Positions 3,783 through 55,430 of a stretch of 64,000 nucleotides of DNA are shown one piece after another. The position numbers and the translations under genes are program-made. The notes beneath the pieces were generated by a model. That model saw only the letters and a program-made list of their open reading frames with translations. It had not been told where the DNA came from and did not search any database. This DNA is from Chloroflexota bacterium (GTDB taxonomy: Bacteria; Chloroflexota; Anaerolineae; JAAYZQ01), in assembly GCA_018606645.1 (NCBI GenBank), contig JAGVRI010000003.1, positions 27,322-91,321 on the forward strand. Reading direction: 5' to 3'. Within the stretch, counting starts at the first letter, position 1. Each line of letters begins with the position of its first letter.

Positions 3783-3826
3783 GGGAAGCGGAGCTTTTAG
3801 GGTGGACCGGATAAAGCCTCGACTCC
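3783..3826. repeat. degenerate copy of 44-bp palindromic element (family A)
   Basis: gggaagcggagcttttagggtggaccggataaagcctcgactcc; right arm identical to family consensus, left arm diverged. Confidence 0.6.
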
Positions 3827-3878
3827 CTGACGAGAGGAGGGGATGGGGCATGGGAGCGACCGGACCCCTCCCCCCGGC

Positions 3879-3917
3879 CCCCTCCCCGCGTGCGGGGAGG
3901 GGGTGCGGGGGTGGGGT
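3879..3917. repeat. C-rich perfect palindrome followed by G-run (G4-like) motif
   Basis: cccctccccgc-gt-gcggggagggg palindrome then gggggtgcgggggtggggtg; related motif seen at 19771-19836 and 21245-21294. Confidence 0.5.
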
Positions 3918-3936
3918 GAAGTGGTCTGTCGCAGAG

Positions 3937-3980
3937 GGAGTGGAGCCTTCAGGCGGTGGACCGGCAAAAGCCTCGACTCC
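3937..3980. repeat. 44-bp palindromic element, family A, compact copy 1
   Basis: ggagtggagccttcaggcggtggaccggcaaaagcctcgactcc; differs at 1 position from copies at 35282 and 53049. Confidence 0.8.
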
Positions 3981-4009
3981 CCCGCGAGAGCTGGCGAACC
4001 TGACCCGGG

Positions 4010-5296
4010 TTATGCCAGGACAAGGAACAGCAGCGCGCCGATCAGTCGGACTCCACCCGAAAGGAAAAAGGTAGGGCGGAGGCCGACCCAATTCGCCAGA
4101 CTGGCGCCCAGCAACGGACCGGCAAACGCGGTCACGTTGATCAACGAGGTATAGAGAGCGACATAGGTGGGCCGGTGATCGGCCGGACAGACATCCAGCA
4201 TCCGGTTGAAGAGGGCCAGGTTGCATCCCGCCCAGCTCAGACCTCCGAGGATGGAAACAGGGATCAACCAGGCGAGGCTGGGGGCCAGACCCGTCAGTGC
4301 GGTATATACCGCCGTCCCTATAGCGGTCACCACCAGTAGCTTGCGGTCTCCCCACCGGGTCTGGATCTTGCCCCAGAAGAAATAGCCGACGATGGTGGTG
4401 GCGTCAATGCACATGACCAGGAGACCCACCCACGAGTCGCTGGCCCCCAATTCCCGGATGCGCAGCACGGACCAGAGAGCCGCCGGCAGGTAGAGTCCCC
4501 AGTAGAAGATAAACGAGGCAATGGCAAAACGTACAAAGTTGCGCTGGGAAGAGATTTCGTGCACGCTCTGGCGCAGACCTTGCAGACTGTACCACTGCCC
4601 GGGCTGTCTGGCTCGCTGAGCGCGCACTGCTTCGGAGACCCGGATGCGGCGCAGGTAGATCAGGCCGATCATGGACAGAGCTGTTCCGACCCCAAAGAGG
4701 ACCTGATAGTTGAGGGGAACCGGCATGAGGTCCAGCAGCATGCCTCCCAGCAGAGCGGCAGCGGTGGCCACGGCGGACAGGATCAGCCAGCGGACACTGA
4801 CCACCTGTCCTCGATCCTCCACAGAGATCAGGTCTGGGATGAGAGACGTGATCGCCGTGTTGATGACTGCGGTCGGTAGGGTGACCACTGCGCTGAGAAC
4901 GATCAGCGCCTGCACACGGTACGCCTCCATGAGAAAGGGCATGGCGGCCATGGCCAGATAGCCCAGGCGTTGCAAGGCGCCCGTGAGCAGGATGATGGGC
5001 ATACGACGGCGTTGTCGTTCGATGATCCGGGCGGCGGGCACCAGCCAGACGATGTTGACCAGCGCCGGCAGGGCGGCGAGCCAGCCCAATTGGGCGGTCG
5101 TTGCTCCCAATCGTAGCGCATAGACGCTGACAAAGGTGTTCGCCAGGCCGTTCAGGATACCGAACCAGGCCGTCTCGATGTAGAGATTGCGGATGTTGCT
5201 CCCCTCAAAGGTATCGGCCGGGGTATACCAGGGCATCCGCTGCGCCAGGCGGCGCAGGGTCTGCGTGCCCCGGTTTCTCCAGTGAGCCATTCGCAT
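4010..5296 (-). CDS. MFS transporter
   Basis: 12-TM-like hydrophobic profile, MFS signature regions; start chosen at MRMAHW (ATG 5296) rather than the longer upstream-extended ORF. Confidence 0.75.
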   Translation of the reverse strand: MRMAHWRNRGTQTLRRLAQRMPWYTPADTFEGSNIRNLYIETAWFGILNGLANTFVSVYALRLGATTAQLGWLAALPALVNIVWLVPAARIIERQRRRMPIILLTGALQRLGYLAMAAMPFLMEAYRVQALIVLSAVVTLPTAVINTAITSLIPDLISVEDRGQVVSVRWLILSAVATAAALLGGMLLDLMPVPLNYQVLFGVGTALSMIGLIYLRRIRVSEAVRAQRARQPGQWYSLQGLRQSVHEISSQRNFVRFAIASFIFYWGLYLPAALWSVLRIRELGASDSWVGLLVMCIDATTIVGYFFWGKIQTRWGDRKLLVVTAIGTAVYTALTGLAPSLAWLIPVSILGGLSWAGCNLALFNRMLDVCPADHRPTYVALYTSLINVTAFAGPLLGASLANWVGLRPTFFLSGGVRLIGALLFLVLA

Positions 5297-5312
5297 CCGG
5301 AGTGATGGCAAT

Positions 5313-5811
5313 TTACGCCTCGGGCCGCGCCTGCTCTTCCAGCGCGGCCTTAAGTTGGTCGTAGGTTTGCAGCCAGGTCTGGGGGATGACCCGGACATCC
5401 CCGACAATAGGCATGAAATTGGTGTCGCCGGACCAGCGGGGCACGACATGGAGGTGGACGTGGTCCTCGATCCCGGCGCCGGCGGCGTGGCCCAGGTTCG
5501 CGCCGATGTTGAATCCGTCTGGCTGCATGGCGGTCCGCAGGGCAGCCAGACTGCGGTTGAGGAGCAGCATCAGTTCGGTCAAGGTGGGCGTATCCAGGTC
5601 CTCCAGGCTGGGGACGTGGGTGTACGGGACGACCATCAGATGCCCGTTGTTATAGGGGAAGCGGTTGAGGATGAGAAAGGCCCGCTCCCCTCGCCATAGG
5701 ACCAGGTTCTCTCGATCTTGATTGCTCTGGACGGCTTCACAAAAGATGCAACCATCCTTTTTGGGCGCCTTCAGGTATTCCAGGCGCCAGGGTGACCAGA
5801 GACGTTTCATT
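5313..5811 (-). CDS. HIT family hydrolase (histidine triad, Ap4A-hydrolase-like)
   Basis: HVHLHVVPR histidine-triad motif; start taken at MKRLWSPW. Confidence 0.8.
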
Positions 5812-5921
5812 CCTTGTTCTCCTTGCCAGCGCTGGGGCTCATTGTAGCCCAAAAGGGGTAGAAGAGCAAGGCAGAAAGGAGTGGAATGCAACGCGAGAAG
5901 CAGCCGGGATGGTATGCCGCG

Positions 5922-8897
5922 CTAGACCCTGCCATCCAATATATCGCGCACTCGCTGGAGCAGTTCCTCCACGTCAAAAGGTTTGGACAAAAAGTGCGCG
6001 CTGTCCTCCAGCACGCCGTGGTGGGCGATGCTGCGGCCGGTATATCCGGACATATAGAGCAGCCGTGTTTCCGGACGACTGAGGTGCAGGCGTTCGGCCA
6101 GCGCTCGACCGCCCAATCGCGGCATGACCACATCGGTCAGTAACAGATGGATGGGTCCCTCATGTTCCGCCGCCACCTGGAGCGCCTCGACCCCATCCTG
6201 CGCGGTCAGCACCAGGTAGCCATGGGTGGTCAGGATATCCCGGACCATCTGCCGCACCAGGACCTCATCTTCCACCACCAGCACGGTTTCCGTCCCCTGC
6301 ACGGCGGTCATGGTCGCCTCAGCCGGGCCGGCTGGCAGGGAGCCAATACTGGCTGCCGCTCGCGGCAGGTAGAGTTTGAAGGTGGTGCCCTGTCCGACCT
6401 CGCTTTCGACGCTGATGTGTCCTTGCCATTGGCGGACGATCCCGTACACAGTGGACAGGCCCAGGCCGCTGCCCTGACCGGGCCCCTTGGTGGTGAAGAA
6501 CGGCTCAAAGATGCGAGCCTTGACCTCTTCGCTCATTCCCACCCCGGTGTCACTCACCGACAGCAGGACATAATCGCCTGGCTCCAGTCCAAAGTACTGG
6601 TTGGTGTAGGACCGGTTGAGGAGGACGTTGGATGTCTCGATCCGCAGACGGCCGCCCTGGGGCATGGCGTCGCGGGCGTTGATCGCCAGGTTGAGCAGCA
6701 CCTGATCGAACTGGGTCGGGTTGATCTCGACCGGCCACAGGTCCTCGCTGAGCGACAGGACGAGCTCGATGTCCTCGCCGAGAAGGCGGGGCAGCATCCG
6801 GCTCATCTCGCGGATGCCCTCGTTCAAGTTCATCTGCTGGATCTGGATCGGCATGTGGCGGCTGAGGGTCAGCAGTTGGCGGCTGAGCTCGGCGGCCCGC
6901 TGGCGGGCTTCGTCGATGCGCTGCAATTGCAGGTGGAGGGGATCGGCCGGGTGGAGCTGCTGGCCCATCAGCCGGGTGCTGAGCTGGATGATGGTCAGCA
7001 GGTTGTTGAAATCGTGGGCCACCCCGCCGGCCAGGCGTCCGACCGCCTCCATCTTTTGCGCCTGATAGAACTGCTCCCGGAGCCGGTCTCGCTCCTCCTC
7101 CGCCCATCTGCGCTCGATGGCGAGCGCTACCTGGGATGCGACCGAAGCAAAGAACTCCTTGTCGCGCTCCGAGTACCGGTTCGGATCTTCATAGTTCTGG
7201 ACGGCCATCACGCCGAGGATCCCGTCGGGCGTCTTGAGGGGCGTCCCCAGCCACGAGGCCGAGTTGGCGCCCACCAGTTCCACTTCGCCGCGCGCCAGCA
7301 ACTCGTCAAACTGGGTCTGGTTGACCAGAACCGTCTGGCCGGTGCGATAGACGTACGAGGCCAGGCTCTTTTCGAGTCGAGAGGGAGGCATCGGCTCGTC
7401 GTATTGGTCCACCGTAAAGACTTCTTCGAACAGGCCGGTTCTCTTGTTGTACAGGACGACGAAAAAGTTCTCGGCGTCGATCACCCGGCCGATGAGCCGG
7501 TGGATGAGGGGGAAGAATTCCTGAAGGTCGGTGGCGGTGGCCACGCCTTGCAGGATCTCGAGCATGACCTGGCGCTCCTCCTCCGCCCGCTTGCGTTCGG
7601 TAATGTCGCGGGCAATGCCACCAAACCCGGCTATCCTCCCCTCTGCATCCCGGAGCAGCCAGGCCTTGGTCTGGACCCAGATCGTTCCTCCATCCCGTCT
7701 GGTCAGGCGGAATTCGATGGCTGGCCGAATCCCCCGGACCGTGTCCACAGGTTCCCCGTTCAGGGTGCTCTGGACGCGCGGCAGCAGGAAGGGAAGGTCT
7801 TCTTCATGCACATATTCGGAGAGATGGTGTCCCACAACTTCTTCAGGCTCGTAGCCGATGAAGGCTTTGATGGAGGGATTGGCAAACAGGACATTTCCCT
7901 CCCGGTCGATGGTAAAGACCAGGTCGGTGGTGGCGTTCAGCAGGTCCCGGTATCGCTGTTCACTTTGTCTCGTTTCCTCGTACAGGTGGGCGTTGGCTAC
8001 GGCTATCCCGATCTGTTGCCCTACGGCGATCAGCAGCGCCTTGTCCTCTTCAGACCAGGACCGGCGAGCCCGTGTGGCCACCGCCAAGATGCCCAGGACC
8101 TTCCCGGCGTGCAGCAGAGGGACCATGGCCGAGAGGGTAAACCCGACGGGCTTGATGGCGGGATTCACCCCGGGATCGTTGGAGGTGTCCTCGTGGAAGA
8201 TCGGTTCTCCGTGGAGCAGCAGACGTTCCCGGTTCCCGCCGGCCCGGACTCGACCGAGGAAAGCTTCCCCGACGCGGGGGTCCACCCCTCGTGTGACCAC
8301 CCGCTCCAGGCGCTGTTCCTGTTCCTTCCACAGGGTAATGCCCCCTGCCTCGAAGCCAATCGCCTGCAAGGCGGCGTCCAGCGCGGCGGCCAGGACCCCC
8401 TCCAGGTCCAGCGATCGGCTGACTGCGGCGGCGACGGCGTTGAGGGCAGCCAGATCACGGGTACGTCGTTCGATCTCTTCCCCAGCTTGTTTCTGTTCGG
8501 TGATATCCATGAGGGCAACCTGCAACGCTGGCCTCCCCTGGTAATCCATGATCCGGCCCATCGCCTGCACCCAGCGCACCCGACCGTCCTTGCACTGCAA
8601 GCGGAACTCCCGGCGATCCACCGCAGGCTCACCCGCCAGCCGCTTTGTCACGGCCCCCCAAACCTGTTCTTGATCCTGGGGATGGACCATGGCTTCGACC
8701 TGTGCTGGCGAGAGGGCAAGCAGTTCCTCCACGGAGTAGCCGCTCATCTCCGCCGTGGCTGCATTGGCAAAGATGATCCGACCATCCTGAAGGATGATCC
8801 AGCCCTGCCACGAATGCTCGACCAGGGCCCGGTAGACTTCGGTGGCCAGCCGCTCATTCTCTGGTCCTTGAAACCATTCTACTGCCTGGGTGTTCAT
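5922..8897 (-). CDS. hybrid sensor histidine kinase/response regulator with multiple PAS and GAF domains
   Basis: 991 aa; repeated PAS-like segments, GAF, HisKA (HDFNN), HATPase (GxGxG) and C-terminal receiver (VLVVEDE...LLLTDVVMP). Confidence 0.85.
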   Translation of the reverse strand: MNTQAVEWFQGPENERLATEVYRALVEHSWQGWIILQDGRIIFANAATAEMSGYSVEELLALSPAQVEAMVHPQDQEQVWGAVTKRLAGEPAVDRREFRLQCKDGRVRWVQAMGRIMDYQGRPALQVALMDITEQKQAGEEIERRTRDLAALNAVAAAVSRSLDLEGVLAAALDAALQAIGFEAGGITLWKEQEQRLERVVTRGVDPRVGEAFLGRVRAGGNRERLLLHGEPIFHEDTSNDPGVNPAIKPVGFTLSAMVPLLHAGKVLGILAVATRARRSWSEEDKALLIAVGQQIGIAVANAHLYEETRQSEQRYRDLLNATTDLVFTIDREGNVLFANPSIKAFIGYEPEEVVGHHLSEYVHEEDLPFLLPRVQSTLNGEPVDTVRGIRPAIEFRLTRRDGGTIWVQTKAWLLRDAEGRIAGFGGIARDITERKRAEEERQVMLEILQGVATATDLQEFFPLIHRLIGRVIDAENFFVVLYNKRTGLFEEVFTVDQYDEPMPPSRLEKSLASYVYRTGQTVLVNQTQFDELLARGEVELVGANSASWLGTPLKTPDGILGVMAVQNYEDPNRYSERDKEFFASVASQVALAIERRWAEEERDRLREQFYQAQKMEAVGRLAGGVAHDFNNLLTIIQLSTRLMGQQLHPADPLHLQLQRIDEARQRAAELSRQLLTLSRHMPIQIQQMNLNEGIREMSRMLPRLLGEDIELVLSLSEDLWPVEINPTQFDQVLLNLAINARDAMPQGGRLRIETSNVLLNRSYTNQYFGLEPGDYVLLSVSDTGVGMSEEVKARIFEPFFTTKGPGQGSGLGLSTVYGIVRQWQGHISVESEVGQGTTFKLYLPRAAASIGSLPAGPAEATMTAVQGTETVLVVEDEVLVRQMVRDILTTHGYLVLTAQDGVEALQVAAEHEGPIHLLLTDVVMPRLGGRALAERLHLSRPETRLLYMSGYTGRSIAHHGVLEDSAHFLSKPFDVEELLQRVRDILDGRV

Positions 8898-8958
8898 GGG
8901 ACTCTTGTCTCCTGCTGCACTGGTTGCCCCTCTGGGAGGGAGTCGCTGTGGTTCAGAT

Positions 8959-9192
8959 TCATCGTGTCTCTATCTGAACGTGTTCGCGCCGGGCTGCATC
9001 ACGACCCAGAGCTCTGACCCGACGCCAGAGGTTGATGACAAAGGGAATTGCTGCCACGCCGATCGCCAACTGGGTGATCCAGCCCACGGTGAGCAGATGT
9101 ACCTGCCCGAAGTAGACCGCCTTGAGCCAGCGGCCGAGCATCATCAGCGCATCCAGCGCAAAAGCAGCCACAAACAAATGCAGTTCAGACAT
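8959..9192 (-). CDS. hypothetical small membrane protein (77 aa)
   Basis: Two hydrophobic segments; same strand as flanking HK and ABC operon; no recognisable family. Confidence 0.3.
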   Translation of the reverse strand: MSELHLFVAAFALDALMMLGRWLKAVYFGQVHLLTVGWITQLAIGVAAIPFVINLWRRVRALGRDAARREHVQIETR

Positions 9193-9242
9193 AGAGTCTC
9201 GCCAGAGGGGGCATCGGGACCTCCTGAGCGGAGCAGGATCTC

Positions 9243-10463
9243 CTATTCAAATCGGAATCGCCATGCCGCCAGGGCGAATAACCCGACTGCATAGGCGGAC
9301 ATGATTGCCACCGGCTGTAACACCGACTCTATCCCCAGCCCACGGATGACGAGGTTCTCAAAGCCATCCATCGCCCAGGCGGTGGGCAGCAGGTGGCCAA
9401 TGGTTTGGAATGTCTGGCTGGTGAATTCAAGCGGCACCCAGGCTCCACCGACCCCGGACAAGACAAACATCGGAATGAGCGAATAGATGATCGTTTGCTC
9501 CTCCGTCTTGGCCAGCACACCGATGAGCAGTCCCAGCGCAGCCGTCCAGGCGGCCGTCGCCGCCATCACCAGGGCAACGGCCAAAGGCTGGCGCAAGTAG
9601 GGCACGCCGAGCAGTTGGCCGAAGGCGATCAGGATCACGAACTGAATGATGATCATGAGGAACATGGCCAGGTAATGACCCAAGATGATCTGGGGGCGGG
9701 AGATGGCCGTCGTCAGCAACCGCCGCAGCGCACGGGATTTGCGCTCCGAGACGAGGATAGTGGCCGCTCCGATCAACCCGGCGATGGAGAACTGAACCAT
9801 CATAGACGGTGAGGCGTGCGAGAAACCGCTCTGCATGATCGGATTGGCTTCCATTGCTTTCGATTCCGTCTTGAGCATGGTCAGCGGGGGTTCCTGCCAG
9901 GCCTGGATGGCGCGGTCCACGGCCTCTGCCAGGAACTGCCGTCGGGCAAGGCCGTCGGCGAAGCGGGCCTGGGCTTCATAGGCCTGGGCGCTCAGCCGGG
10001 CGATCTCGGCGGCGCCGGCCAGTCGCAGCGCTGCCGTCTGGATTTCGCGCCGGGCCGTCAACCCGGCAGGCTCGCTTTCATCGAGGAGAACCCGCAACGG
10101 GATCATCTCGCCGGCCAGCAGTCTGTCGCCGTAGCTGGCGGGCACGATCACCACGGCTGCCAGGTCCCCAGCCTGCACCTTTCTTTCTGCACGCTCCGGA
10201 TCGGCCTCCTGGCCTTCTAGCAGGACGGGACGAAGCGTGCCTGACTGGTCGAGCAGGCGCAACAGGCTGGCACTGGAGGAGCTGCGGTCCTGGTCAATGA
10301 ACCCCACCGGCAGCCGAGGGTCCTGCGCTCCGCCTCCGAAACCGCCGAAGGCAAAGCCAAACAGCAGGGTAAAGAGGATGGGCATGATGACCAGAAAGAG
10401 GGCCGTCTTCCAGTCACGGACGAGCTGCCTCAGGTCTTTGATGGTCAGGTCCAGGATGCGCAT
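9243..10463 (-). CDS. ABC-2 family transporter permease
   Basis: N-terminal MRILDLTIKDL...LFLVIMPILF and C-terminal 5-TM core typical of ABC-2 exporters; start chosen 10 nt after the upstream permease stop. Confidence 0.75.
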   Translation of the reverse strand: MRILDLTIKDLRQLVRDWKTALFLVIMPILFTLLFGFAFGGFGGGAQDPRLPVGFIDQDRSSSSASLLRLLDQSGTLRPVLLEGQEADPERAERKVQAGDLAAVVIVPASYGDRLLAGEMIPLRVLLDESEPAGLTARREIQTAALRLAGAAEIARLSAQAYEAQARFADGLARRQFLAEAVDRAIQAWQEPPLTMLKTESKAMEANPIMQSGFSHASPSMMVQFSIAGLIGAATILVSERKSRALRRLLTTAISRPQIILGHYLAMFLMIIIQFVILIAFGQLLGVPYLRQPLAVALVMAATAAWTAALGLLIGVLAKTEEQTIIYSLIPMFVLSGVGGAWVPLEFTSQTFQTIGHLLPTAWAMDGFENLVIRGLGIESVLQPVAIMSAYAVGLFALAAWRFRFE

Positions 10464-10473
10464 GGCAGTCCTC

Positions 10474-11742
10474 CTACGCGAACCGCTTCCGGAACCTGAG
10501 CAAGCCCGCTGCGAAAAAGACACCGGCCAGGCTGACCATGACCAACACGGTGACCAGCACGTCGCCTATCCCGCCGCCGGCCTGGAGGAGTTGCCAGCCG
10601 CGCACCGCCCAGCCCTGGGGTACCAGAAGGGAGAGGGTATCGAATATCTGCCGGGCCGGGCCGGCCACCTGAGCCGTGAAAATGTTGATCATCCCGAGGT
10701 TCCCCATCACGGTCAGCACTCCTCCGTAGACCAGCCCACCCTGCCGTCTATCTTTGAGGAGCGAAGTGAGGAACAGACCAAAACCGGCCGCCAGGAGGAT
10801 CATGCCGGCTGCCACTCCCATTGCCGGTGCAGGCGATCCCCAATGGACGTGGAAGAGCAATGCAGAGGCGGTGACCAACATGACGACCTGGAGGATCAAG
10901 GTGACCAAGGTGGCCACCATCCGGCCCGCCAGGATGGCGGAGATAGGGGTGGGCGTGGTGAACAACCGGGCCAGGGTCCCGGCTTCCTCTTCGGCGAGGA
11001 GATTCTCGGCGGAGGCTGCCCCGGTAAAGAATACGAAAAAGACCATCATCCCGGCCATGATCAGGCTGACGATGCGGGAACGGACGTCCTCACTCCCGGG
11101 CTCAACGGCAGGACGATGGATCTCAAGCAGGGCACTGGTCTCCTGCTGTTGATGTGCCCCCAGGGCTGCGGCCCAGCGGCCATATTCCACCGCTATCGCC
11201 TGCGATGTCGCTGCATCTATGGGGTGTCCGTATCGGGCCAACTGCGCGGTGACCACGTTGGCCGCGATGTTGCTTCCGATCAACCCATCTACGAACTGGC
11301 CGATGATCCCGCTGACGATGCCCGGCCCCAGAGTCAAGGTTGGATCCTGGTAGAGCTCCACGACGGCGCGCTCACCGGGTCGGACCAGAGCGGCGGTCAG
11401 GTCAGCCGGCAAGATGACGGCCAGCCCTGCCTGTTGTTGGTCCACCACACGGCGGGCGGTGACAGCGTCGGCCACCTCGCTCACCGCCAGGATTTCCTTA
11501 AAGTCCTCGGCCTTGAGGAAATTGAGCAGAAGCTGTCCGGCCGAAAAGCCATTCACCGGAGAGTCAAGATTTGCCACGACGACCTGGGTCACGGGCAGGT
11601 CAAAACCGCCATCACCCAACCCGCCGAAGGCAAAGAAAAAGATGCCGCTGGTCAGCAGCGGAACAGCCAGCCCAAAGACCCACACCGAGAAGCTGCGGGA
11701 AGAACGGAGCAGGTCCTTACGGGCAATATCCAGCGTCTTCAT
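10474..11742 (-). CDS. ABC-2 family transporter permease
   Basis: Paralog of the downstream permease (MKTLDIARKDLLRS...); large extracytoplasmic loop then TM core. Confidence 0.75.
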   Translation of the reverse strand: MKTLDIARKDLLRSSRSFSVWVFGLAVPLLTSGIFFFAFGGLGDGGFDLPVTQVVVANLDSPVNGFSAGQLLLNFLKAEDFKEILAVSEVADAVTARRVVDQQQAGLAVILPADLTAALVRPGERAVVELYQDPTLTLGPGIVSGIIGQFVDGLIGSNIAANVVTAQLARYGHPIDAATSQAIAVEYGRWAAALGAHQQQETSALLEIHRPAVEPGSEDVRSRIVSLIMAGMMVFFVFFTGAASAENLLAEEEAGTLARLFTTPTPISAILAGRMVATLVTLILQVVMLVTASALLFHVHWGSPAPAMGVAAGMILLAAGFGLFLTSLLKDRRQGGLVYGGVLTVMGNLGMINIFTAQVAGPARQIFDTLSLLVPQGWAVRGWQLLQAGGGIGDVLVTVLVMVSLAGVFFAAGLLRFRKRFA

Positions 11743-11752
11743 GGTGGCTGCC

Positions 11753-12730
11753 TTACTCATCCCGCAAGGCACGACCGGTGAGGTGGAGGAACACTGCCTC
11801 CAGGTTGGGCTCCTGGATGGTGACCGAGGTTATTCGCACCCCGGCCTGAGTCGCCGATTCGAACAGGCGGGGCAACACCAGGTTACTATCATCCACCAGC
11901 AAGGTGACGGTTCTCTCGCCATCAGTAGCCTGGGGGTGACTCGGGGCTCCAACGATCACCTTCTGCACTCCGGGAATCTGTTGCCACCGGTCGGTCACCC
12001 AGTCGGGCAGGGCGTTGAGCGTCAGGTCCACCCGGTCCAGTTCGCCCACGATCTGGACCAGATCCTGGTGGGTGCCCTGGGCGATGATCCGGCCCTGGTC
12101 CATGATGGCGATCTGGTCGGAAAGTTCCTGGGCCTCTTCCATGTAATGGGTTGTGTAGAGGACGGTCATCCCCTGGCGATTCAGTTCTTTGACACTGTCA
12201 AGGATGTTACGACGAGTCTGGGGATCAATCCCGACCGTCGGTTCGTCCATGATGATCACCTGGGGGCGGTGGAGCAGGGCGATGCCAATGTTCAACCGAC
12301 GCTTCATGCCGCCTGAGAACTTGGCCACACGGCCCTTCTGCCGGTCAGCCAGACCGATAATCTCCAGCACCTCATCCACCCGCTGCCGGAGTGCTGCTCC
12401 GCGCAAGCCAACCATCTTGCCCCAAAAATCGAGGTTCTCGCGGGCCGACAGGTCCTCATACAGCGCAATTTCCTGGGGGACGACACCGATGGCCGCTTTG
12501 ACGGCCATCGGTTCGCGCTGCACTGAGTGGCCCATCACCAGGGCATCCCCGCTGGTGGGTTGTAGCAGGCAGGAAAGGATCGAGATGGTGGTACTCTTGC
12601 CGGCGCCGTTGGGTCCCAGCAGGCTAAAGATCTGGCCAGCCGGGACCGTGAAACTGATCCCCTTTACGGCATGAAGATCGCCGAATCGTTTGTGCAGGTC
12701 GCGGACCTGGATGGCGGGTTGTCCGTTCAT
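11753..12730 (-). CDS. ABC transporter ATP-binding protein
   Basis: Walker A GPNGAGKST, signature LSGGMKRR, Walker B IIMDEPT; heads a 3-gene operon with the two permeases. Confidence 0.9.
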   Translation of the reverse strand: MNGQPAIQVRDLHKRFGDLHAVKGISFTVPAGQIFSLLGPNGAGKSTTISILSCLLQPTSGDALVMGHSVQREPMAVKAAIGVVPQEIALYEDLSARENLDFWGKMVGLRGAALRQRVDEVLEIIGLADRQKGRVAKFSGGMKRRLNIGIALLHRPQVIIMDEPTVGIDPQTRRNILDSVKELNRQGMTVLYTTHYMEEAQELSDQIAIMDQGRIIAQGTHQDLVQIVGELDRVDLTLNALPDWVTDRWQQIPGVQKVIVGAPSHPQATDGERTVTLLVDDSNLVLPRLFESATQAGVRITSVTIQEPNLEAVFLHLTGRALRDE

Positions 12731-12822
12731 GGTTGCTCCTTAGTGTCCCTCGATTATTATACTCACAAGGTCTGGAAAAGCAAGCGGGCAGTTGGGGCTG
12801 TTTCAGAGTTCGGCACCCGGTG

Positions 12823-12880
12823 GGAGTGGAGGCTTTAGCCGGAAGGGAATTGCGCAGAATCCAGCGAAAGCTTCCGCTCC
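12823..12880. repeat. family A palindromic element, long-loop degenerate copy
   Basis: ggagtggaggctttagccgg ...21 nt... gcgaaagcttccgctcc in the ABC/GerW intergenic region. Confidence 0.55.
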
Positions 12881-13067
12881 TGGGCCGTTCCGCAACCCCG
12901 CAGCCGGCTTGGCGACAGCCGCACACCCGGTGGTCCTCTCACACGGCTGAATGGGAAGGCTTCCCATGCCGGCATCAAATGCATCCGTTTTGACAGATAC
13001 AGGCTTTTCGTCTATAGTCTCTTTCGTTCATGGATGATGGTCTAGCAAGTCATGATCAGGAGGACTC

Positions 13068-13430
13068 GTGGCAGAGACAACTCGAAAGGCGGTCAGACCC
13101 AGGCCGTTCCGCAGTGAGATCGTCCGCGGCGAACCCACCCAGGTGGGCGAGCGAGCCTTGATCCCGGTGGCTCGTATCCGCTCATTCGGTCGCGCCAAGG
13201 GGATGGTGGGCGCTCACCGATTCGGGGGCTGGGGAGTGGGAGCCGCCCAGATCACACCGTTGGCCGTGATCGACACGAGCGAACGGGCTGAACGGACCAT
13301 CCCGATTGTGGATGGGACCGCACAGGCCTTGCGGTGGATGATTGCCTGGGCTGCGGCCATCACCCTATTACTGGCGGTGATCCGGCGACAGGTCCGGCAC
13401 CGGCGATCCCAAAGGGGAGGGCTCGCATGA
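13068..13430 (+). CDS. GerW/YtfJ-family protein
   Basis: GTG start with AGGAGG RBS 4 nt upstream; pattern ...IPVARI..FG.GGG..I.P.AVI and C-terminal TM; weaker match than its neighbour. Confidence 0.55.
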   Translation: MAETTRKAVRPRPFRSEIVRGEPTQVGERALIPVARIRSFGRAKGMVGAHRFGGWGVGAAQITPLAVIDTSERAERTIPIVDGTAQALRWMIAWAAAITLLLAVIRRQVRHRRSQRGGLA

Positions 13431-13452
13431 GACATCGGCGAAGGAGAGGCTC

Positions 13453-13848
13453 ATGATTCTGAATCAACTGTTCGACAAGATTGACCAGGTACGGGAAACG
13501 GCCAACTGGCAGGCCGCCTTTGGTCCACCGCAGGTTGTGGAGGGGAAGACGATCATCCCGGTAGCCCAGGTCAGCTATCTCTTTGGACTGGGGTTTGGCA
13601 GCGTGCTCGGCCCTGAAGCGGAAACCGAATCGGTTGGCGGCAGTCAGGGCGGCGGCGAGGGCGGAGGCGCCTCGACGAAACCGCTGGGAGCGATCGTCGT
13701 TACTCCGGATCGGGTCTATTTTGAACCGGTCCTGGATATGGGCAAGATCGCCTCGTTCGGGCTCGGTCTGGCGGCCCTGCTGCTGTTTCAACTGTCCCGG
13801 ACCATCCGCCTTGTCCTGGGACGGAAGGCAAGTCGGGCTGTTCGCTGA
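13453..13848 (+). CDS. GerW/YtfJ-family protein (Spore_YtfJ-like)
   Basis: ...GKTIIPVAQVSYLFGLGFG...GGGEGGGAS...GAIVVTP matches YtfJ/GerW signature; RBS AAGGAGAGG. Confidence 0.7.
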   Translation: MILNQLFDKIDQVRETANWQAAFGPPQVVEGKTIIPVAQVSYLFGLGFGSVLGPEAETESVGGSQGGGEGGGASTKPLGAIVVTPDRVYFEPVLDMGKIASFGLGLAALLLFQLSRTIRLVLGRKASRAVR

Positions 13849-13853
13849 CCAGA

Positions 13854-15170: not shown

Positions 15171-15185
15171 GGAAGATCGTCGCTG

Positions 15186-18259: not shown

Positions 18260-18306
18260 GAAGGCGCCGAATGCCACGCTGCTAAGAGAAAGGAAGGGAA
18301 AGGACG

Positions 18307-18690
18307 ATGCGCACGATCACGATCCGCATTGGCGAGGTAACCGCTCAGGCGGTGCTGTACGAGAACCCGACGGCCGAGGCCATCTGGGCCGCTTTGCCGT
18401 TCAGCGCGCGGGGAAACCGATGGGGCGACGAGATCTATTTCGAGGTCCCAGTCCGGTTGCCCCAGGCAGCGGATGCCCGCGACCTCCTGGAAGCGGGGGA
18501 ATTGGGCTATTGGCCGGTGGGCCACGCCTTTTGTATCTTCTGGGGACCTACCCCCGCCAGTCGCGGCGATGAGATCCGCGCCTACAGCCCGGTCAACGTC
18601 TTTGGCCGGCTGGAAGGCGATCCATGCGTTTTTGAGACGACGCCCGATGGGGCCGTGGTCATCGTCGAGCGCCAGGAGGGAGCGAAATGA
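18307..18690 (+). CDS. cyclophilin-like fold protein (DUF, PF04126-like)
   Basis: 127 aa, pattern consistent with the cyclophilin-like family of unknown function. Confidence 0.55.
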
Positions 18691-19703
18691 GCCGGAAACC
18701 GAACGTTTGGGTCACGCGCCTCATCCCCGAAGGCGGCCTGGAGCTGATCCGTGAGGCGTGCGAGGTGGAGGTCTGGACGGAGGAACTGCCGCCGCCTCGG
18801 GAAGTGCTCCTGGAGAAGGTGCGGGGCCGGGATGGTTTGCTCTGTCTGCTCACCGATCGGATCGACGCAGCGGTGATGGACGCGGCCGGTCCAAGCCTGA
18901 AGGTGATCAGCAACCTGGCGGTGGGCTATGACAACGTGGATGTGGCGGCGGCGACGGCGCGGGGCATCCCGGTGGGCAATACGCCGGGGGTGCTGACCGA
19001 GACGACGGCCGACATGGCCTTTGCCTTGCTCATGGCTGCGGCGCGGCGCATTGTGGAAGGGGTTGACTATGTGCGGGCCGGCCGGTGGCGGACCTGGGGA
19101 CCGATGCTGCTGCTGGGCTACGACGTGCATGGGGCTACGCTGGGGATCGTGGGCATGGGCCGCATCGGTCAGGCGGTCGCGCGGCGGGCCGCCGGCTTTG
19201 AGATGCGCATTCTCTATTTTGATCCCTACTGCGACCCTGGCAAGATTCCACCGGGGATCGAGGCGACGTGCTGCACCCTGGAAGAACTCCTGGCCGAGGC
19301 CGATTTCGTCAGTCTGCATGTTCCTCTCACCCCAGAAACCTATCGCCTGATCAACGCCGAGAGACTGGCCCAAATGAAGCCTACGGCGGTGTTGGTCAAC
19401 ACCTCGCGCGGACCGGTGGTGGATACCGAGGCGCTCTATCAGGCGCTGGCCTCGGGTCAGATCGCGTACGCCGCGCTGGATGTGACCGATCCGGAACCGT
19501 TGCCGGCGGACCACAAGCTGCTGACGCTGCCCAACTGCCTGGTGGTGCCGCACATTGCCAGTGCGAGCTGGGCGACGCGGACGCGGATGGCGCAGATGGC
19601 GGCGGAGAATCTGATGGCCGGGCTGCGGGGAGAGCGGCTGCCCCATTGCGTGAACCCTGAGGTGTACGGTTCCCAGCCGGGGCAATCGGAACCTGAGCGG
19701 TAG
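18687..19703 (+). CDS. D-isomer specific 2-hydroxyacid dehydrogenase (glyoxylate/hydroxypyruvate reductase-like)
   Basis: NAD-binding GxGxxG (GIVGMGRIG), catalytic R/E/H arrangement; 4-nt overlap with upstream gene. Confidence 0.85.
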
Positions 19704-19704
19704 C

Positions 19705-20007
19705 GGCGGAAGCCTCGACTATCTGGCCTGCGGCCGTGCGTCCCCCGGCAGAGACTTGACCCCCACCTAACCTCCCCCGTCAAGGGGGAGGGACTCGGAT
19801 CCCCCCTCCCCTGGTGGGAGGGGTGGGGGGAGGGGGCCGGTGGAAACGCGTCCGCAGCGGTCTATTTTCGGAGAAGTAGCCAGGCCCGGCTGGGCGCCAC
19901 GAGGGATGAGACTCGGGGCCTGTCAACGAATGGGAAACGAATCAACGAATGGACGCAGCTCCGGGTGGGGGAGTGGAGGCTCTAGGCGGCTGACCGGCTA
20001 AAGGGGG
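19705..20007. repeat. composite intergenic repeat region (family A half copy, G4/C-rich palindrome motif, degenerate family A copy)
   Basis: 19705-19723 ggcggaagcctcgactatc; 19771-19791 cctccccc-gtcaa-gggggagg hairpin; 19815-19836 gggaggggtggggggaggggg; 19970-20007 ggagtggaggctctaggcggctgaccggctaaaggggg. Confidence 0.6.
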
Positions 20008-20070
20008 CGACCGGGCCGGTCGCCCCTACGCTCCCCGCGCGGGGGGAGCGCTCGATTTTCGGGGGAACTG

Positions 20071-20916: not shown

Positions 20917-20983
20917 CGTCATCATCTCGCTCGTCAGTGAATCCGAGACCATTATAGCCGATTTGAGGCAAACTGTCCATTGG

Positions 20984-21012
20984 TTGACAGGCGTTCTCGG
21001 CGGTGGTAGAAT
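20984..21012 (+). promoter_or_regulatory. sigma70-like promoter TTGACA-N17-TAGAAT
   Basis: ttgaca (20984-20989), 17-nt spacer, tagaat (21007-21012); faces the peptidase/xseAB genes, leaving a ~320-nt leader. Confidence 0.5.
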
Positions 21013-21244
21013 ACGCTGCAGTGCAATGGAACCGATTGATGCGGACATGCTCAGGACAAGCCCGAAGATCGGTCTGTCCTCCGGCGCGCTCGCCTGTCGC
21101 TCGAAGCGGCGGGCTCAGCCAGCGAAGCCCCTTTCGGGGCTGGGAAACCGGCTTTCACGGGACTTGACATGCGTGGTGGGGGCGGCGCGAGGGATGGAAA
21201 TATCGAGGAGTTGGCACGGCCAGACCTCTCCTCATCCCCCCGGC

Positions 21245-21280
21245 CCCCTTCCCCTCTCCGCCGGCGGAGAGGGGAAGGGG
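21245..21280. repeat. perfect 36-bp palindrome, followed by G-run motif
   Basis: ccccttcccctctccgcc|ggcggagaggggaagggg is a perfect inverted repeat centred on ccgg; followed by gggggtgcagggggcaggggtgagg (21271-21294). Confidence 0.7.
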
Positions 21281-21338
21281 GTGCAGGGGGCAGGGGTGAG
21301 GTGAGGACCCTTATTTTCGAAGGATGAGGGGATCGTCC

Positions 21339-25215: not shown

Positions 25216-25330
25216 GAGATCCTCATTCTTGAATGATCGGTCCCCGCTGCGGGGGCGTGCGCTCGATTATACCTGCTTTGGTCGGACCTGTCCAGTTTTC
25301 TACCGTTAACGGAGAGGCACCCGACAGCGC

Positions 25331-25556
25331 GGGTTCTAGGCGATTCCACTCCGGCTAAAGCCTCGACTCCCATCGGGTGGCGGACTTGGCCCAGGAGTGG
25401 AAGCTTTAGCCGGGTTCTGTACGGTTCCGTTCCGGCTAAAGCCTCGACTCCCACCGGGTGCTGGACCCTGCCGCCGAGGAGTGGAGGCTTTAGCCGGGTT
25501 CTGTACGATTCCGGTCCGGCTAAAGCCTCCACCCCCACCGGGCGCCGGACCTGCCC
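25331..25556. repeat. tandem array (~2.7 units of 82-84 bp) of long-loop family A palindromic element
   Basis: Unit gggttctgtacgattccggtccggctaaagcctcgactccca-(24 nt)-ggagtggaggctttagcc repeated at 25331, 25412, 25496; each unit contains a ~20-bp inverted repeat. Confidence 0.8.
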
Positions 25557-35038: not shown

Positions 35039-35227
35039 CCGCCTGACGGTTCACTCCAGGGTTGTCGCATGAAAATAGCCGGCGGCTGAAGCCGCGCCTG
35101 TCAGGCCGGCGGCCGAACGTCCCCCGGCGGGGACGCGTTCCGTCGGCGCAGGCCGACGGCCAGCCGAAGGTTCTTGAGGGGCGATTTCAATCGCGGTCTA
35201 TTATCGAGGAGCCTTTCGGCGGGTTGT

Positions 35228-35325
35228 CCGGCTGAAGCCTCGACTCCCGGATGCGGGGAGCGGTCTGTTTCGAAGGGAGGTGGAGTGGAGCCTTCAGGCG
35301 GTGGACCGGCTAAAGCCTCGACTCC
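35228..35325. repeat. family A palindromic elements: half copy (35228-35247) plus compact 44-bp copy 2 (35282-35325)
   Basis: ccggctgaagcctcgactcc then ggagtggagccttcaggcggtggaccggctaaagcctcgactcc. Confidence 0.8.
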
Positions 35326-35330
35326 TGGAT

Positions 35331-35508: not shown

Positions 35509-35587
35509 AATAGCTGTCAGCGGTGCATCGGACGAGTCTCGGCAGGTTCTCGCTGAAAGCCGAGAAGGCAGGGCGGGGGTAAAGCCT

Positions 35588-52490: not shown

Positions 52491-52601
52491 ATCCGTTGCC
52501 TTTGATAGGAATCATATTCTATCCCAATTGGCTCTGCTTGTAAAGTTGCCGAAATCGGGCAGGGATGGTAAGATGCGAGGGGAGGCGATGGACGCAGGCC
52601 G

Positions 52602-55430
52602 ATGGCTCATAGTTCCTGGCGGCGGCAATTCCTGACCGTTCTGGTCTACAGCATCCTGGCGCTGGCTCTCACCTGGCCGCTTGTCAGCCGGTTCACCGAT
52701 CATGTGCCGGGTAACGGGGTGGACGATCCGCCGCTGACCTGGAACCTGTGGTGGGTTCGTCATGCCCTGCTGGAGTTGGGCGTTGATCCGTTTGACTGCG
52801 CCTACCTGTTCTATCCGATCGGCATCAACCTGGCGTTTTACACCCTCACCATTCTGAACAGCTTGCTCTCCATTCCCTGGCAGGCGGTTTGGGGCCTGGT
52901 GCCGGCCAGCAATCTGTTACTTCTGTCTTCCTTTGTGCTGAGTGGGTATGGAGCCTTTCTTCTGGGATGGTATTGTTTAGGAAGAGGCAGGGCACAGGCC
53001 CCGGACGAACCCCTCACGCCTTTGAAAATAGACCGCGCCCCTCGCGCAGGAGTCGAGGCTTCAGCCGGTCCACCGCCTGAAGGCTCCACTCCCCCAGCCG
53101 GAGTCGAGGCCTCCGCCGCCAACCTCGATATTTTCATCCGTCGTGGCGCCCCACCGGGCATGGCTACTCCCTCCAGAATGTTTCTGGCGGCGTTTGTGGC
53201 CGGTCTTCTCTATGCCTTTGCCTCATGCAAAATGGCCTATGCGGCGCTGGGGCAATGGAATATCGCCAGTTCTCAATGGATCCCGTTTTATGTGCTCTAT
53301 TTGTTCAGAATGGGGGAATGCCCAGGCCGATGGCGCTATCTCCTTCTGGCGGCGCTCTTTTTATGGTTTCAGGCCTATGCGGAGCTGACCTATGCTTCGT
53401 TCCTGGTGCTCTTTACCGCAGGATGGGGGCTGTGGCGACTGCTCATTTGCCTTCGAGAGCGGAACGTACGACAGGCCAAGCGTCTAATCGGCAAGCTGGC
53501 TGTTCTTGCACTGTTGACTGTCGGAGGGCTGATCCCGGTCCTGGTCCGGATGATCCCGGACATGGTGCAGGAAGGGCGGTTTCTGGTCGAAGGCGAAGGC
53601 TTTGCCGACGTCTTCTCTGCGGACCTGTTGGGGTTCTGGGTGCCGACCATGTATCACCCGGTGCTGGGGTCATGGGTGGAGCGGTTCCGTTTTGATTACA
53701 GTGTGGGGCAACATATCTATGTGGGGTATGCGGTGCTGGCGCTGGTTCTGGTGGCCGGCGTCCGCTGTTGGCGCAGGCCCGGAGTGCGCTTTTGGTTTGC
53801 GTCGGCGTGTGTGTTCTGGGTGTTGACGTTCGGTCCTTCGCTCCGGATCAATGGTCAGAGCACCGGGCTGCCGATGCCGTTTGTCTGGATTGCGCGGCTG
53901 CCCTTCTTTGAGGGGAATCGGTATCCAAGCCGTTACAGCGTGCTCTTGATGCTCAGCCTGGCTATGTTGGTGGCTTTTGGGTTGAGTGAGCTTCTTCGCC
54001 GTCGGGGTGGGCGCTTTCGCGCCGTCCCTTGGACCGTCTCCTGGTTGTTGATCCTGCTGCTTCTGGGCGAGCACCTCTCGATTCCACTTCCGTTGTCCGA
54101 TATGCGGGTGCCGGCCGTGTATGACAAGATCGCCGGGGAGTACCCTGGCGACTGGGCGCTGTTGGACCTGCCGGTGGCCTGGCGGAATGGTTTTCGCGTG
54201 ACCGGGACGCAGCATCCGGTGATCATGTTTGAACAGTACTATCAATCCGCCCACGGCAAACGGCTCCTGGGAGGCAATACGTCGCGCAATCCCCCTTTCA
54301 AATTCCAGTATTTTACGGAAGCGCCGGTGATCAACACCCTGATCGCCCTGGAAACCGGGCATGAGGTGGACCCTGAGGTCGTGAAGCGTGACCGATCTCT
54401 GGCTCCGGAGGTGCTGCGATTTTTCAATATCGAGGCGGTGGTAGTTCATACGGATCAGACCGGACCGGATGTCATCCCGTACATTCAGGCGACCCTGCCC
54501 GTTCGGGCCATCTACGAGCAAGCGGGGATCGTCGCGTACCGGGCCGAGCTGCCGCCATGGCCCTCGACCTGGGATATCCGGCCGGGCGATGCGTTGTCAC
54601 GATTGAGCCTCGGCGAAGGTTGGGGGGCGCCGACCGACGATCTGGTCTGGGCCCAACGGCGCACGGTTCGACTGCTCGTGCCGCTGCGGGGTGGGCGCCA
54701 ACGGATGACCTTCCGCATGTATAGCCCGGAAGGTGGATCCTATCTCCGGGTGGAGGCGAATGGACAATTGGTGGTCCGCCTTCCCTTGAAGTCAGGGTGG
54801 GCTGACTATGAGTTGGAGATCCCGGGCGATCGAGTCGATGCCGGATTGAATGAGTTTCGGCTCCGCTTTGAGAAACTCTATCCCACGGAGGAGATCCGGC
54901 TCTCACCACGCTCGGTTGGCGCAACCGGGGTCGAGTCGCCGGTCAACCTGGTGGTGCAAAGCGCCGGGCAAGAGGTGGGGGATTTGGCTTATCTGTACGT
55001 CAACGGCAGACAGGTTTCGCCCAACCAGCGGGGGTACAACCTGGTGGTGGTGAATGCGGAGAATGGTACGGTGGAACAGGTAGTCAGCTTTGACACCCAT
55101 CTCAACGAAAGGGCCAGCGCAGAGCTGGCTGCTGTTCTGAACCAGGTGTCGCCTGGCCGGATCGTGGCGGTCGCGGTCGCTGATGAGGCGTCACGGCTGC
55201 TGGGTGAGGAGGCAGTGAACGCCCTGCGCCGTATCGGAGCGACGGAGGACCTGCGAGGCCGATTCCGGTGGGGGCAGGCGATCATCGGGGTACAGGGCGC
55301 AGCGCCCGGTACGGCTCTGGAAGCGGCGGATTGGATGCGCCCAGTCACACTGGTGGTGGGCGAGGGGGCCACCGAACCGCAGCTCGCGGCCGCTTTTGCC
55401 TGGATCCGGTTCACGGCGGTTCCAGAGTAG
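52602..55430 (+). CDS. large polytopic membrane protein (GT-C/YfhO-like N-domain) with C-terminal ILEI/PANDER-like domain
   Basis: 942 aa; many TM segments; C-terminal GYNLVVVNAENGTVEQVVSFDTH...GRIVAVAVADEAS...IGATEDLRGRFRWGQ matches FAM3/ILEI pattern; contains an in-frame family A repeat at 53049-53092. Confidence 0.6.
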   Translation: MAHSSWRRQFLTVLVYSILALALTWPLVSRFTDHVPGNGVDDPPLTWNLWWVRHALLELGVDPFDCAYLFYPIGINLAFYTLTILNSLLSIPWQAVWGLVPASNLLLLSSFVLSGYGAFLLGWYCLGRGRAQAPDEPLTPLKIDRAPRAGVEASAGPPPEGSTPPAGVEASAANLDIFIRRGAPPGMATPSRMFLAAFVAGLLYAFASCKMAYAALGQWNIASSQWIPFYVLYLFRMGECPGRWRYLLLAALFLWFQAYAELTYASFLVLFTAGWGLWRLLICLRERNVRQAKRLIGKLAVLALLTVGGLIPVLVRMIPDMVQEGRFLVEGEGFADVFSADLLGFWVPTMYHPVLGSWVERFRFDYSVGQHIYVGYAVLALVLVAGVRCWRRPGVRFWFASACVFWVLTFGPSLRINGQSTGLPMPFVWIARLPFFEGNRYPSRYSVLLMLSLAMLVAFGLSELLRRRGGRFRAVPWTVSWLLILLLLGEHLSIPLPLSDMRVPAVYDKIAGEYPGDWALLDLPVAWRNGFRVTGTQHPVIMFEQYYQSAHGKRLLGGNTSRNPPFKFQYFTEAPVINTLIALETGHEVDPEVVKRDRSLAPEVLRFFNIEAVVVHTDQTGPDVIPYIQATLPVRAIYEQAGIVAYRAELPPWPSTWDIRPGDALSRLSLGEGWGAPTDDLVWAQRRTVRLLVPLRGGRQRMTFRMYSPEGGSYLRVEANGQLVVRLPLKSGWADYELEIPGDRVDAGLNEFRLRFEKLYPTEEIRLSPRSVGATGVESPVNLVVQSAGQEVGDLAYLYVNGRQVSPNQRGYNLVVVNAENGTVEQVVSFDTHLNERASAELAAVLNQVSPGRIVAVAVADEASRLLGEEAVNALRRIGATEDLRGRFRWGQAIIGVQGAAPGTALEAADWMRPVTLVVGEGATEPQLAAAFAWIRFTAVPE
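53049..53117. repeat. family A 44-bp palindromic element (compact copy 3, reverse orientation) plus adjacent half copy, inside CDS
   Basis: ggagtcgaggcttcagccggtccaccgcctgaaggctccactcc = reverse complement of copies 1/2 with 1 substitution; translated in frame as AGVEASAGPPPEGSTPPAGVEASA. Confidence 0.8.

Follow-up and report, generated by a model that had tools for sequence, protein, structure and literature searches.

Dispersed hairpin repeats in a Chloroflexota genome are very probably REPINs of a RAYT transposase clade

Results

A 64,000-nt stretch of a Chloroflexota bacterium (assembly GCA_018606645.1, contig JAGVRI010000003.1, positions 27,322 to 91,321, forward strand; hereafter the window) carries a dispersed family of palindromic hairpins. 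We interpret them as inverted dimers of a repetitive extragenic palindromic (REP) sequence, or REP doublets forming hairpins (REPINs), of the kind associated with REP-associated tyrosine transposases (RAYTs). The window has a G+C content of 62%, its closest named relatives are Anaerolineae metagenome-assembled genomes (MAGs), and its genes are ordinary chromosomal ones, including those for pantothenate and CoA enzymes, a carbamoyltransferase, MFS (major facilitator superfamily) and ABC transporters, NAD kinase, glycosyltransferases, a Tad pilus operon, EF-P and MutY. A Pfam scan of ~47 genes detected no transposase, RAYT, HUH enzyme or integrase in the 64 kb, in keeping with an original prediction, made from the sequence of this stretch, that no RAYT or transposase lies within it. 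The family comprises ~13 units at six loci: two spacers between convergent genes, two between divergent genes, one between genes on the same strand, and one site inside a gene.

Three of these units are full-length, nearly identical compact hairpins, and the others are long-loop, tandem, degenerate or half copies. The compact 44-nt REPIN at 3937..3980 (+), in a spacer of convergent genes, is a heterodimer composed of 5' arm GGAGTGGAGCCTTCAGGCGG, loop TGGA and 3' arm CCGGCAAAAGCCTCGACTCC. A second, at 35282..35325 (+), is 98% identical to it and lies in the same-strand spacer downstream of gene 33431-35038 and upstream of a response-regulator gene at 35588. The third, at 53049..53092 (-), is inside gene 52602-55430, where it is translated in frame as AGVEASAGPPPEGSTP and adjoined by a single REP arm, GCGGCGGAGGCCTCGACTCC (53100..53119, -). 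Compact copies vary solely at two adjacent loop-side positions (ggc-AA/TA/TG-aagcc), by 1-2 bases in each pair. Two degenerate compact REPINs, assigned to repeat family D1, lie at 3783..3826 (+; 5' arm GGGAAGCGGAGCTTTTAGGG, 3' arm CCGGATAAAGCCTCGACTCC; 66% identity to the reference copy), 20 nt past the carbamoyltransferase stop codon, and at 35204..35247 (+; 64%), 35 nt upstream of the intact 35282 copy.

Long-loop copies occupy the two divergent-gene spacers. That at 12823..12880 (+) has a degenerate 3' arm, and its likeness to the copies near 25.4 kb spans 12804-12886 (repeat I1, 83 nt, 84% complementary to 25388-25470). The latter form a tandem REP cluster of 2.7 units of 81-84 bp at 25330..25555 (+; repeat D2), for which Tandem Repeats Finder gave a period of 84 and 84% matches; it consists of a partial unit ending in an arm at 25351-25370 and two full long-loop REPINs at 25394-25451 and 25478-25535. 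Incomplete units include a single REP-like arm, GCGGCGGAAGCCTCGACTAT, at 19703..19722 (+), which begins on the stop codon of gene 18687-19703, and a truncated REPIN at 19970..20003 (+; repeats D1 and I7) that retains the 5' arm and loop and breaks off halfway through the 3' arm (GGAGTGGAGGCTCTAGGCGGCTGACCGGCTAAAG).

The 13-mer arm core AAGCCTCGACTCC occurred 18 times in the window with at most two mismatches, versus 1.95 expected (100 shuffles, maximum 6). An extra match at 42641 was dismissed as chance, being in coding sequence and also present in a relative, L125. Coordinates and strands of the compact copies were exact in the original prediction, and the additional copies that it listed (3783, 12823, 19705, 19970, 25331-25556, 35228 and 53098) are all family members. 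It was also correct that all copies but one are intergenic, with just the 53049 copy intragenic, in a gene whose homologues span its full length. Near-identity of the compact copies holds, but the variation lies at two adjacent positions, not at a single one; and the consensus as first written has 43 nt, one base short of the true 44, so an exact search with it fails because that base is missing.

The repeat unit is a 20-nt arm that in its 5'-type form reads GGAGT(C/G)GAGGCTTYAGCCGG and in its 3'-type form is the complement, CCGGCTRAAGCCTCGACTCC. Each arm is laid out as 5'-GG-A-GT(C/A/G)G-A-[GGCT-TY-AGCC]-GG-3', in which a GTAG-like tag precedes a very short stem-loop, and each hairpin consists of two inverted arms, tags outward, around a variable loop of 0-48 nt (total 44-70 nt). 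The window holds two subfamilies, one compact with a 4-nt loop and one with an 18-nt loop, in which similarity reaches ~12 nt past the arms on either side. Predicted stems have 18-20 bp and recurrent conserved mismatches, bearing out the imperfect stem of that length first proposed; in the compact copies the 5' arm has GAGCCTTCAGGCGG in place of GAGGCTTCAGCCGG, which leaves C.C and G.G mismatches in the long hairpin. Predicted folding energies range from -23 to -46 kcal/mol as RNA and from -9 to -17 kcal/mol as DNA (-10.0 kcal/mol, z = -2.45, for the 3937 copy; -17.4 kcal/mol, z = -5.4, for the 25394 long-loop copy). Relative to shuffles, most copies have z = -2.4 to -5.4; those at 35282 and 3783 are individually not significant. 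The only stop codons within arms are TAG (frame 2, TTTAGCC form of the 5'-type) and TAA/TGA (frame 3, 3'-type), and this near-absence of stops may help copies to survive inside genes.

A scan for exact GGCNNAAGCCTCGACTCC, with one genome per species and taxon labels taken from MAG records, returned at least 118 loci. Among the matches listed, 103 carried a Chloroflexota label, covering Anaerolineae, Anaerolineales, Caldilineae, Ardenticatenaceae, Chloroflexia/Oscillochloris and a few Dehalococcoidales. None of the 15 non-Chloroflexota loci among those matches had a second arm (best 5'-arm score <=13/20), and since ~280 chance matches were calculated for 16 fixed bases in 596 Gb, these loci fit chance. 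In Chloroflexota loci the full palindrome was usual, with 81 hairpins and 99 single arms in 935 kb (window plus loci). Loop sequences were lineage-specific, with preferred lengths of 30, 16-17, 10-11 and 6 nt; it is therefore the arm, not the whole element, that is conserved, and conserved across classes, the same 20-nt unit recurring in lineages as distant as Anaerolineae and Chloroflexia. Seven matches in a viral collection included no hairpins, consistent with chance, and phage-borne spread was rejected on these grounds. Literature searches with the arm sequence matched only an unrelated primer, and searches on MITEs (the miniature inverted-repeat transposable elements) or REPs of Chloroflexi or Anaerolineae returned general REP papers alone.

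Arms are also arranged in other ways in these genomes. Seven 3'-type arms lie in direct orientation with a 34-bp period at L085 2700-2920, and three with an 80-81-bp period at L012 6640-6825; single arms can therefore be amplified in tandem without an inverted partner. In the Oscillochloris MAGs L001, L031, L034, L073 and L097, a compact heterodimer is nested in a larger palindrome (AGCAATCCTA...hairpin...TAGGATTGCT), a composite element specific to that lineage.

Clustering of the open reading frames (ORFs) within 300 bp of arms at the 118 loci revealed one family of ~180-aa proteins beside arm arrays in three different genomes (L025, L048, L117), and this was the sole gene family that recurrently adjoined arms. 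The three proteins matched Pfam Y1_Tnp at 32-37 bits (cut-off 23), and the two scanned against NCBIfam NF047646, "REP-associated tyrosine transposase" (L025 and L048), scored 101 bits (cut-off 80). The IS200 model gave 19.7 bits, far under its cut-off of 55, and the best PDB match was 4ER8, E. coli TnpA-REP (E = 1.3e-9). An HUH motif (HYH) and a tyrosine motif (YIHHNPVKH) were invariant across the three, and we identify the protein, from these sequence matches, as a putative Y1 HUH enzyme of RAYT type, not an IS200 TnpA.

Searching metagenome contigs with the three RAYT proteins produced 80 loci, and the association with arms followed RAYT relatedness closely. At 65 of 65 loci with a RAYT at least 50% identical to a query, arms were present within 300 bp, on both sides at 54 (most of the others being cut by contig ends). 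Any arm was found at just one of the 15 loci with a RAYT 31-48% identical. The layout was constant: a 5'-type arm lies ~30-120 bp ahead of the start codon and a 3'-type arm follows 0-60 bp past the stop, and thus the RAYT gene occupies the loop position of a hairpin copy (a "REPtron"). Arms on both sides often extend into alternating arrays. Position 6 of the 5'-type arms near RAYT genes was C in 178 cases, and A, G or T in 24, 18 and 7, respectively; the candidate tags are thus GTCG, GTAG and GTGG in falling order, which agrees with the GTMG degeneracy noted in PMC3733652. Furthermore, locus L137 has compact heterodimers of the window type (GGAGTGGAGCCTTCAGGCGG-6 nt-CCGGCTAAAGCCTCCACTCC), with GTGG heads, beside a RAYT.

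Presence of the arms differed between the window and close relatives. No arms with up to four mismatches were found in ~70 kb, mostly syntenic with the window, of relatives L119-L123, L125 and L126 (~88-99% amino-acid identity), the exception being one shared chance site. Four of these (L119-L122; carbamoyltransferase 93-94% identical) are syntenic with the window over 17-21 kb and armless at the same threshold; the spacer between the carbamoyltransferase and MFS genes is ~100 bp in relatives versus 246 bp in the window, and the 12823 copy is absent from the syntenic region of L121. Alignment of intergenic DNA with the relatives of 93-94% amino-acid identity yielded no insertion boundaries, the sequences being too diverged. 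In L124 (98%), an intact compact copy begins exactly at the position of the window's degenerate 3783 copy, and the contig ends inside the repeat; the L123 contig (99%) ends a few tens of bases past the carbamoyltransferase gene. Both are short-read assemblies, and these ends at or near the repeat (L123 7330-7389, L124 3873-3921) are typical of assembly breaks at dispersed repeats.

The intragenic copy provided a precise empty site. The product of its host gene (52602..55430, +) is a membrane protein of 942 aa that carries an ILEI domain at its C terminus, and homologues span 100% of its length, the closest being P0121 (892 aa). The reading frame stays open through an in-frame mosaic insertion of ~150 nt (50 codons; 53019..53168, boundaries within a few bases), which contains the REPIN, the single arm and a second-family copy (53118-53178) and has a length divisible by three. 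Alignment showed 49-50 extra residues, LKIDRAPRAGVEASAGPPPEGSTPPAGVEASAANLDIFIRRGAPPGMAT, in the window protein that are missing in 8 orthologues, including one ~95% identical. At the empty site in that orthologue (L125:10320-10520), CCCCTCACA is directly followed by CCGCCCAGCCGGTTTCTGG, whereas the window has ~150 inserted bases there. A further 20 kb of L125 was armless save the chance coding match common to the window, and no consistent target-site duplication was seen in the flanks of copies or at the L125 empty site. The motif CCCAGCCGG separates the insertion's two halves and also occurs at the empty site, a placement that could reflect two separate insertions.

Among 81 hairpins screened, nine were candidates for an open frame through the hairpin, and ~8-10% were intragenic. 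Inspection and Pfam matches supported genuine in-frame insertions in four further genes, encoding a P-type ATPase (L027; its hydrolase domain holds three 81-nt units in tandem), a GT4 glycosyltransferase (L063; the insertion separates the two domains), shikimate dehydrogenase (L102; AroE) and a histidine kinase (L060). Intragenic copies are usually translated as GVEA(S/L)AG...PA(K/E)ASTP. Copies at L004 and L040 were rejected as intragenic, being in 5' leaders upstream of the real start codons.

Covariation was examined in 489 arms detected by their outer tail alone, avoiding bias. The ten inner arm bases behave as a small stem: pair 4-11 was GC in 387 arms, CG in 77 and AT in 5, versus ~13 unpaired combinations, and pair 3-12 was CG in 11 arms and AT in 10, so that compensatory changes occur at two of the four arm pairs. 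Across 105 distinct arms, double-changed cells numbered 36, whereas shuffles gave 8.0 +/- 2.3 and none of 500 reached 36; no slid pairing register came near this count. The mismatches in the compact copies arise from their heterodimer structure: a GCCT..AGGC arm is joined to a GGCT..AGCC arm, and either arm is consistent within itself. A long hairpin by itself would not demand such a within-arm pattern, and the arm stem, if it matters, is probably read in complex with protein. Alternatively, the arm may be a symmetric double-stranded binding site.

None of the copies is followed by a T-tract (3' flanks CCCGCGAG, TGGATGCG and CACCGGGT), and no family copy was among the terminator-like sites in 3000-21500; an intrinsic (Rho-independent) terminator was rejected on account of the lack of a directly following T/U run. 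Rfam matched no family across the whole window at gathering thresholds, and with E-value thresholds two element regions gave generic long-hairpin matches alone (miRNA-like, C4), far below cut-offs. Integron attC sites were rejected, as the arms lack R''/R' core sites (RYYYAAC...GTTRRRY) and copies are scattered among housekeeping genes; CRISPR was rejected, as the spacers of the tandem units are themselves repeated, not unique; and a tRNA-like reading was dropped, its defining motifs or arrangement being absent.

Other repeats were noted in the window. A second dispersed family (19867-19909, 21159-21215 and 53118-53178; 80-88% identity, roughly CCTCGATATTTTCATCCGTCGTGGCGCCCCACCGGGCATGGCTACT) has one copy in frame within gene 52602-55430, beside the REPIN. 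Palindromes rich in G/C homopolymers (CCCCTCCCC...GGGGAGGGG) occupy three intergenic regions (3860-3918, 19770-19842 and 21244-21281), two of them shared with REP copies; the 21244-21281 region has no REP, and its palindrome is perfect over 38 nt. A 53-nt repeat, D9 (19703-19755 and 35082-35134, 81% identical), starts with the REP-like arm and may be a composite module with the REP inside; its 35082 copy lies ~44 nt beyond the stop codon that ends gene 33431-35038. In the convergent-gene spacer with the truncated 19970 REPIN, the best terminator-like site is a G+C-rich 8-bp stem followed by CTCGATTTTC (20029-20050, +), immediately downstream of that REPIN.

Two further features of the window were recorded. 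A 573-aa protein (15186-16907, +) carries the full set of three topoisomerase IB domains of eukaryote type (Topoisom_I_N, Topoisom_I and Topo_C_assoc), which is uncommon in bacteria, and is also encoded in syntenic L121. Each of two minus-strand genes, ending at 12730 and 25215, has a TATAAT box followed by CGAG (12745-12766 and 25258-25275, minus-strand reading) ~30 nt ahead of its start codon, which suggests short leaders and a common promoter-proximal motif.

Discussion

The architecture of the arms, taken together with the published features of REPs, leads us to regard the window hairpins, with high though not complete confidence, as REPINs: non-autonomous inverted dimers of a 20-nt REP, belonging to a Chloroflexota clade of RAYTs (HUH/Y1 enzymes related to the TnpA of IS200/IS605). 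The arms are linked exclusively to one RAYT clade, and the RAYT that the original prediction proposed to seek elsewhere lies directly flanked by the same arms in other Chloroflexota genomes. The prediction's suggestion of recent mobility, REP- or MITE-like, is likewise supported by presence and absence of copies between close relatives and by the one precise empty site. Its proposal of strong functional constraint stands in part: the arm is constrained phylum-wide, with compensatory changes in individual arms, which is most simply ascribed to the need for recognition by the RAYT. A putative host RNA or terminator role is not needed.

By analogy with E. coli TnpA-REP and IS200/IS605 (PMC8266576), a single-copy RAYT encoded elsewhere in the source genome would recognize the folded, single-stranded arm together with its tag. 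Cleavage and rejoining at the arm would then allow dimers to be copied or moved without target-site duplication, and clusters may later grow by slippage or recombination. We infer that the RAYT catalyzes the spread of the repeats; any effect of the copies on the host is similarly putative. If this reading is correct, the RAYT of the source genome should be bracketed by GGAGTGGAG-type arms.

Several observations weigh against assignment to REPINs. The partner RAYT gene is assumed for the window organism, as the 64-kb window has none. Evidence for mobility consists of presence and absence among relatives and one empty site, with RAYT binding and cleavage putative, and the intragenic insertion, mixed as it is with a second repeat family, offers no clean single-event picture. 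The tag is GTCG in 78% of arms and the canonical GTAG in merely 11%, with GTGG in the window copies. The isolated arm folds weakly (-1.2 to -1.6 kcal/mol, no better than shuffles), its own stem being 3-4 bp versus the 5-13 bp described for single REP units. Finally, a 20-nt arm kept across at least two classes is unlike usual REPs, which are mostly species- or genus-specific.

The most durable of the alternatives, though an improbable one, is that these are host-selected hairpins without a dedicated transposase, serving as terminators, mRNA-stabilizing or processing sites, or binding sites for nucleoid or regulatory proteins. Phylum-wide conservation of the arm would fit such a role, as would the copies in transcribed spacers at the 3' ends of genes (3764-4009, 19704-20070 and 35039-35587), and exaptation of REPs for mRNA stability and for protein binding is established in E. 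coli (PMC3733652). However, no copy is followed by a T-tract or was among the terminator-like sites in 3000-21500, no Rfam family beyond generic hairpins was matched, copies also occur between divergent promoters and inside ORFs, and orthologous spacers of close relatives have none. The strict link to one RAYT clade accounts for the conservation without a host role, although individual copies could have been secondarily exapted.

It is less likely still that the family is a MITE of the classical kind, derived by deletion from a DDE-type insertion sequence (IS), with the 20-bp arms as terminal inverted repeats, moved by cut-and-paste with target-site duplications. The elements do have two 20-bp inverted termini around a short variable core (40-90 bp in total), and copies are dispersed, some within genes. 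Yet in the 118 loci, RAYT loci excepted, there was no distant arm pair around a transposase-sized ORF. RAYT alone recurrently adjoins arms, none of the arm pairs encloses a DDE transposase, and the flanks show no consistent target-site duplication. Covariation within the arm is also unexpected for double-stranded inverted repeats bound by a DDE enzyme. As for there being no biological family at all (chance palindromes in G+C-rich DNA, or an artefact of MAG assembly or chimerism), the source is probably a MAG and relatives' short-read contigs do break at the repeat, but strong enrichment over shuffles, near-identical copies in unique flanks, the family's occurrence in more than 100 independent assemblies and 65 RAYT loci, and an intragenic copy that preserves the reading frame make this explanation negligible.

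Within the REPIN interpretation, we tentatively raise a further idea, to which we give rather low credence: that the pairing is unusually ancient and uniform, one 20-nt REP with a 3-4 bp stem and one RAYT clade in at least two Chloroflexota classes. If so, it would imply either very prolonged vertical co-inheritance or recurrent transfer inside the phylum, a mode of recognition (tag plus mini-hairpin) that differs from the two studied TnpA-REP/REP groups, and a preferred form consisting of heterodimers of GGCT..AGCC and GCCT..AGGC arms. The arm is, moreover, open in most reading frames and encodes linkers rich in Gly, Ala, Ser and Pro, which may let the family colonize genes as well as spacers.

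To our knowledge, REPIN-RAYT systems have been studied almost solely in Proteobacteria; the present family would match a well-defined REP sequence to a RAYT clade in Chloroflexota, which are known mostly through metagenomes. With its very short REP stem, its GTCG/GTGG tag and its conservation throughout the phylum, it is a useful test case for RAYT substrate recognition and for the lifetime of such partnerships. There are practical consequences as well. The repeats break short-read assemblies, as in two relatives, create spurious or extended ORFs, and add peptide segments to real proteins, which annotators should recognize.

The closest known counterparts are the REP/REPIN-RAYT systems of E. 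coli (4ER8) and Pseudomonas. Di Nocera et al. 2013 (PMC3733652) described REPs with degenerate GTMG/GTRG tags and TY loops; REP dimers foldable into large hairpins and arranged as homodimers, heterodimers and clusters; and intragenic dimers encoding 20-30 residues. The inverted dimers correspond to the REPINs of Bertels and Rainey (PMC3116915). The Chloroflexota family likewise has a short palindromic unit with a TY loop and a putative tag of GTAG type at its 5' side, mostly in inverted dimers within a larger hairpin, in tandem clusters, at high copy number and mainly extragenic. Its Y1/HUH gene is bracketed by inverted copies and passes the NCBIfam RAYT equivalog cut-off. It differs in the predominance of GTCG/GTGG over GTAG tags, in a 20-nt unit whose conservation spans classes of a phylum and is not confined to a genus, and in its host phylum, Chloroflexota. 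For Chloroflexota, PMC3733652 gave GTAG REPs for Chloroflexus aggregans and Thermomicrobium roseum alone, and Bertels et al. 2017 (PMC5581495) found Group 4 RAYTs to be common in Caldilineae, with modestly repeated flanking 16-mers.

Comparison with the IS200/IS605 elements and their PATE (palindrome-associated transposable element) derivatives is instructive for mechanism: the Y1 HUH superfamily is shared and, by analogy, so may be recognition of hairpins on single-stranded DNA and the lack of target duplication. However, the Chloroflexota protein scores far under the IS200 model cut-off, the repeats are symmetric dimers instead of distinct left and right subterminal hairpins, and the RAYT gene is present once per locus, not multiplied with the repeats. 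[quoted passage not shown] Published TIRs are unrelated to GTAG REPs or share a GGGGWSAS motif, whereas the Chloroflexota arms have a GTMG-type tag and a mini stem-loop, which places them between the REP and TIR categories.

Rickettsia palindromic elements (RPEs; PMC10969869, PMC3733652) similarly lie in frame in unrelated housekeeping genes and encode short hydrophilic loop peptides, comparable to the GVEASAG...PAKASTP peptides of gene 52602-55430 and of the L027, L060, L063 and L102 genes. RPE-1 is ~100-150 bp long and without a known transposase, whereas the Chloroflexota family has a cognate RAYT clade and only ~8-10% of its hairpins are intragenic, and the likeness is one of common behaviour, not common ancestry. 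The window's spacers also recall the bacterial interspersed mosaic elements (BIMEs) of E. coli, which are intergenic mosaics of alternately oriented REPs and other short repeated modules, here represented by the second repeat family, the G-rich palindromes and repeat D9. The module sequences differ. Overall, the unusual traits of the Chloroflexota family are variations within the known REP/RAYT kind and do not define a new category of system.

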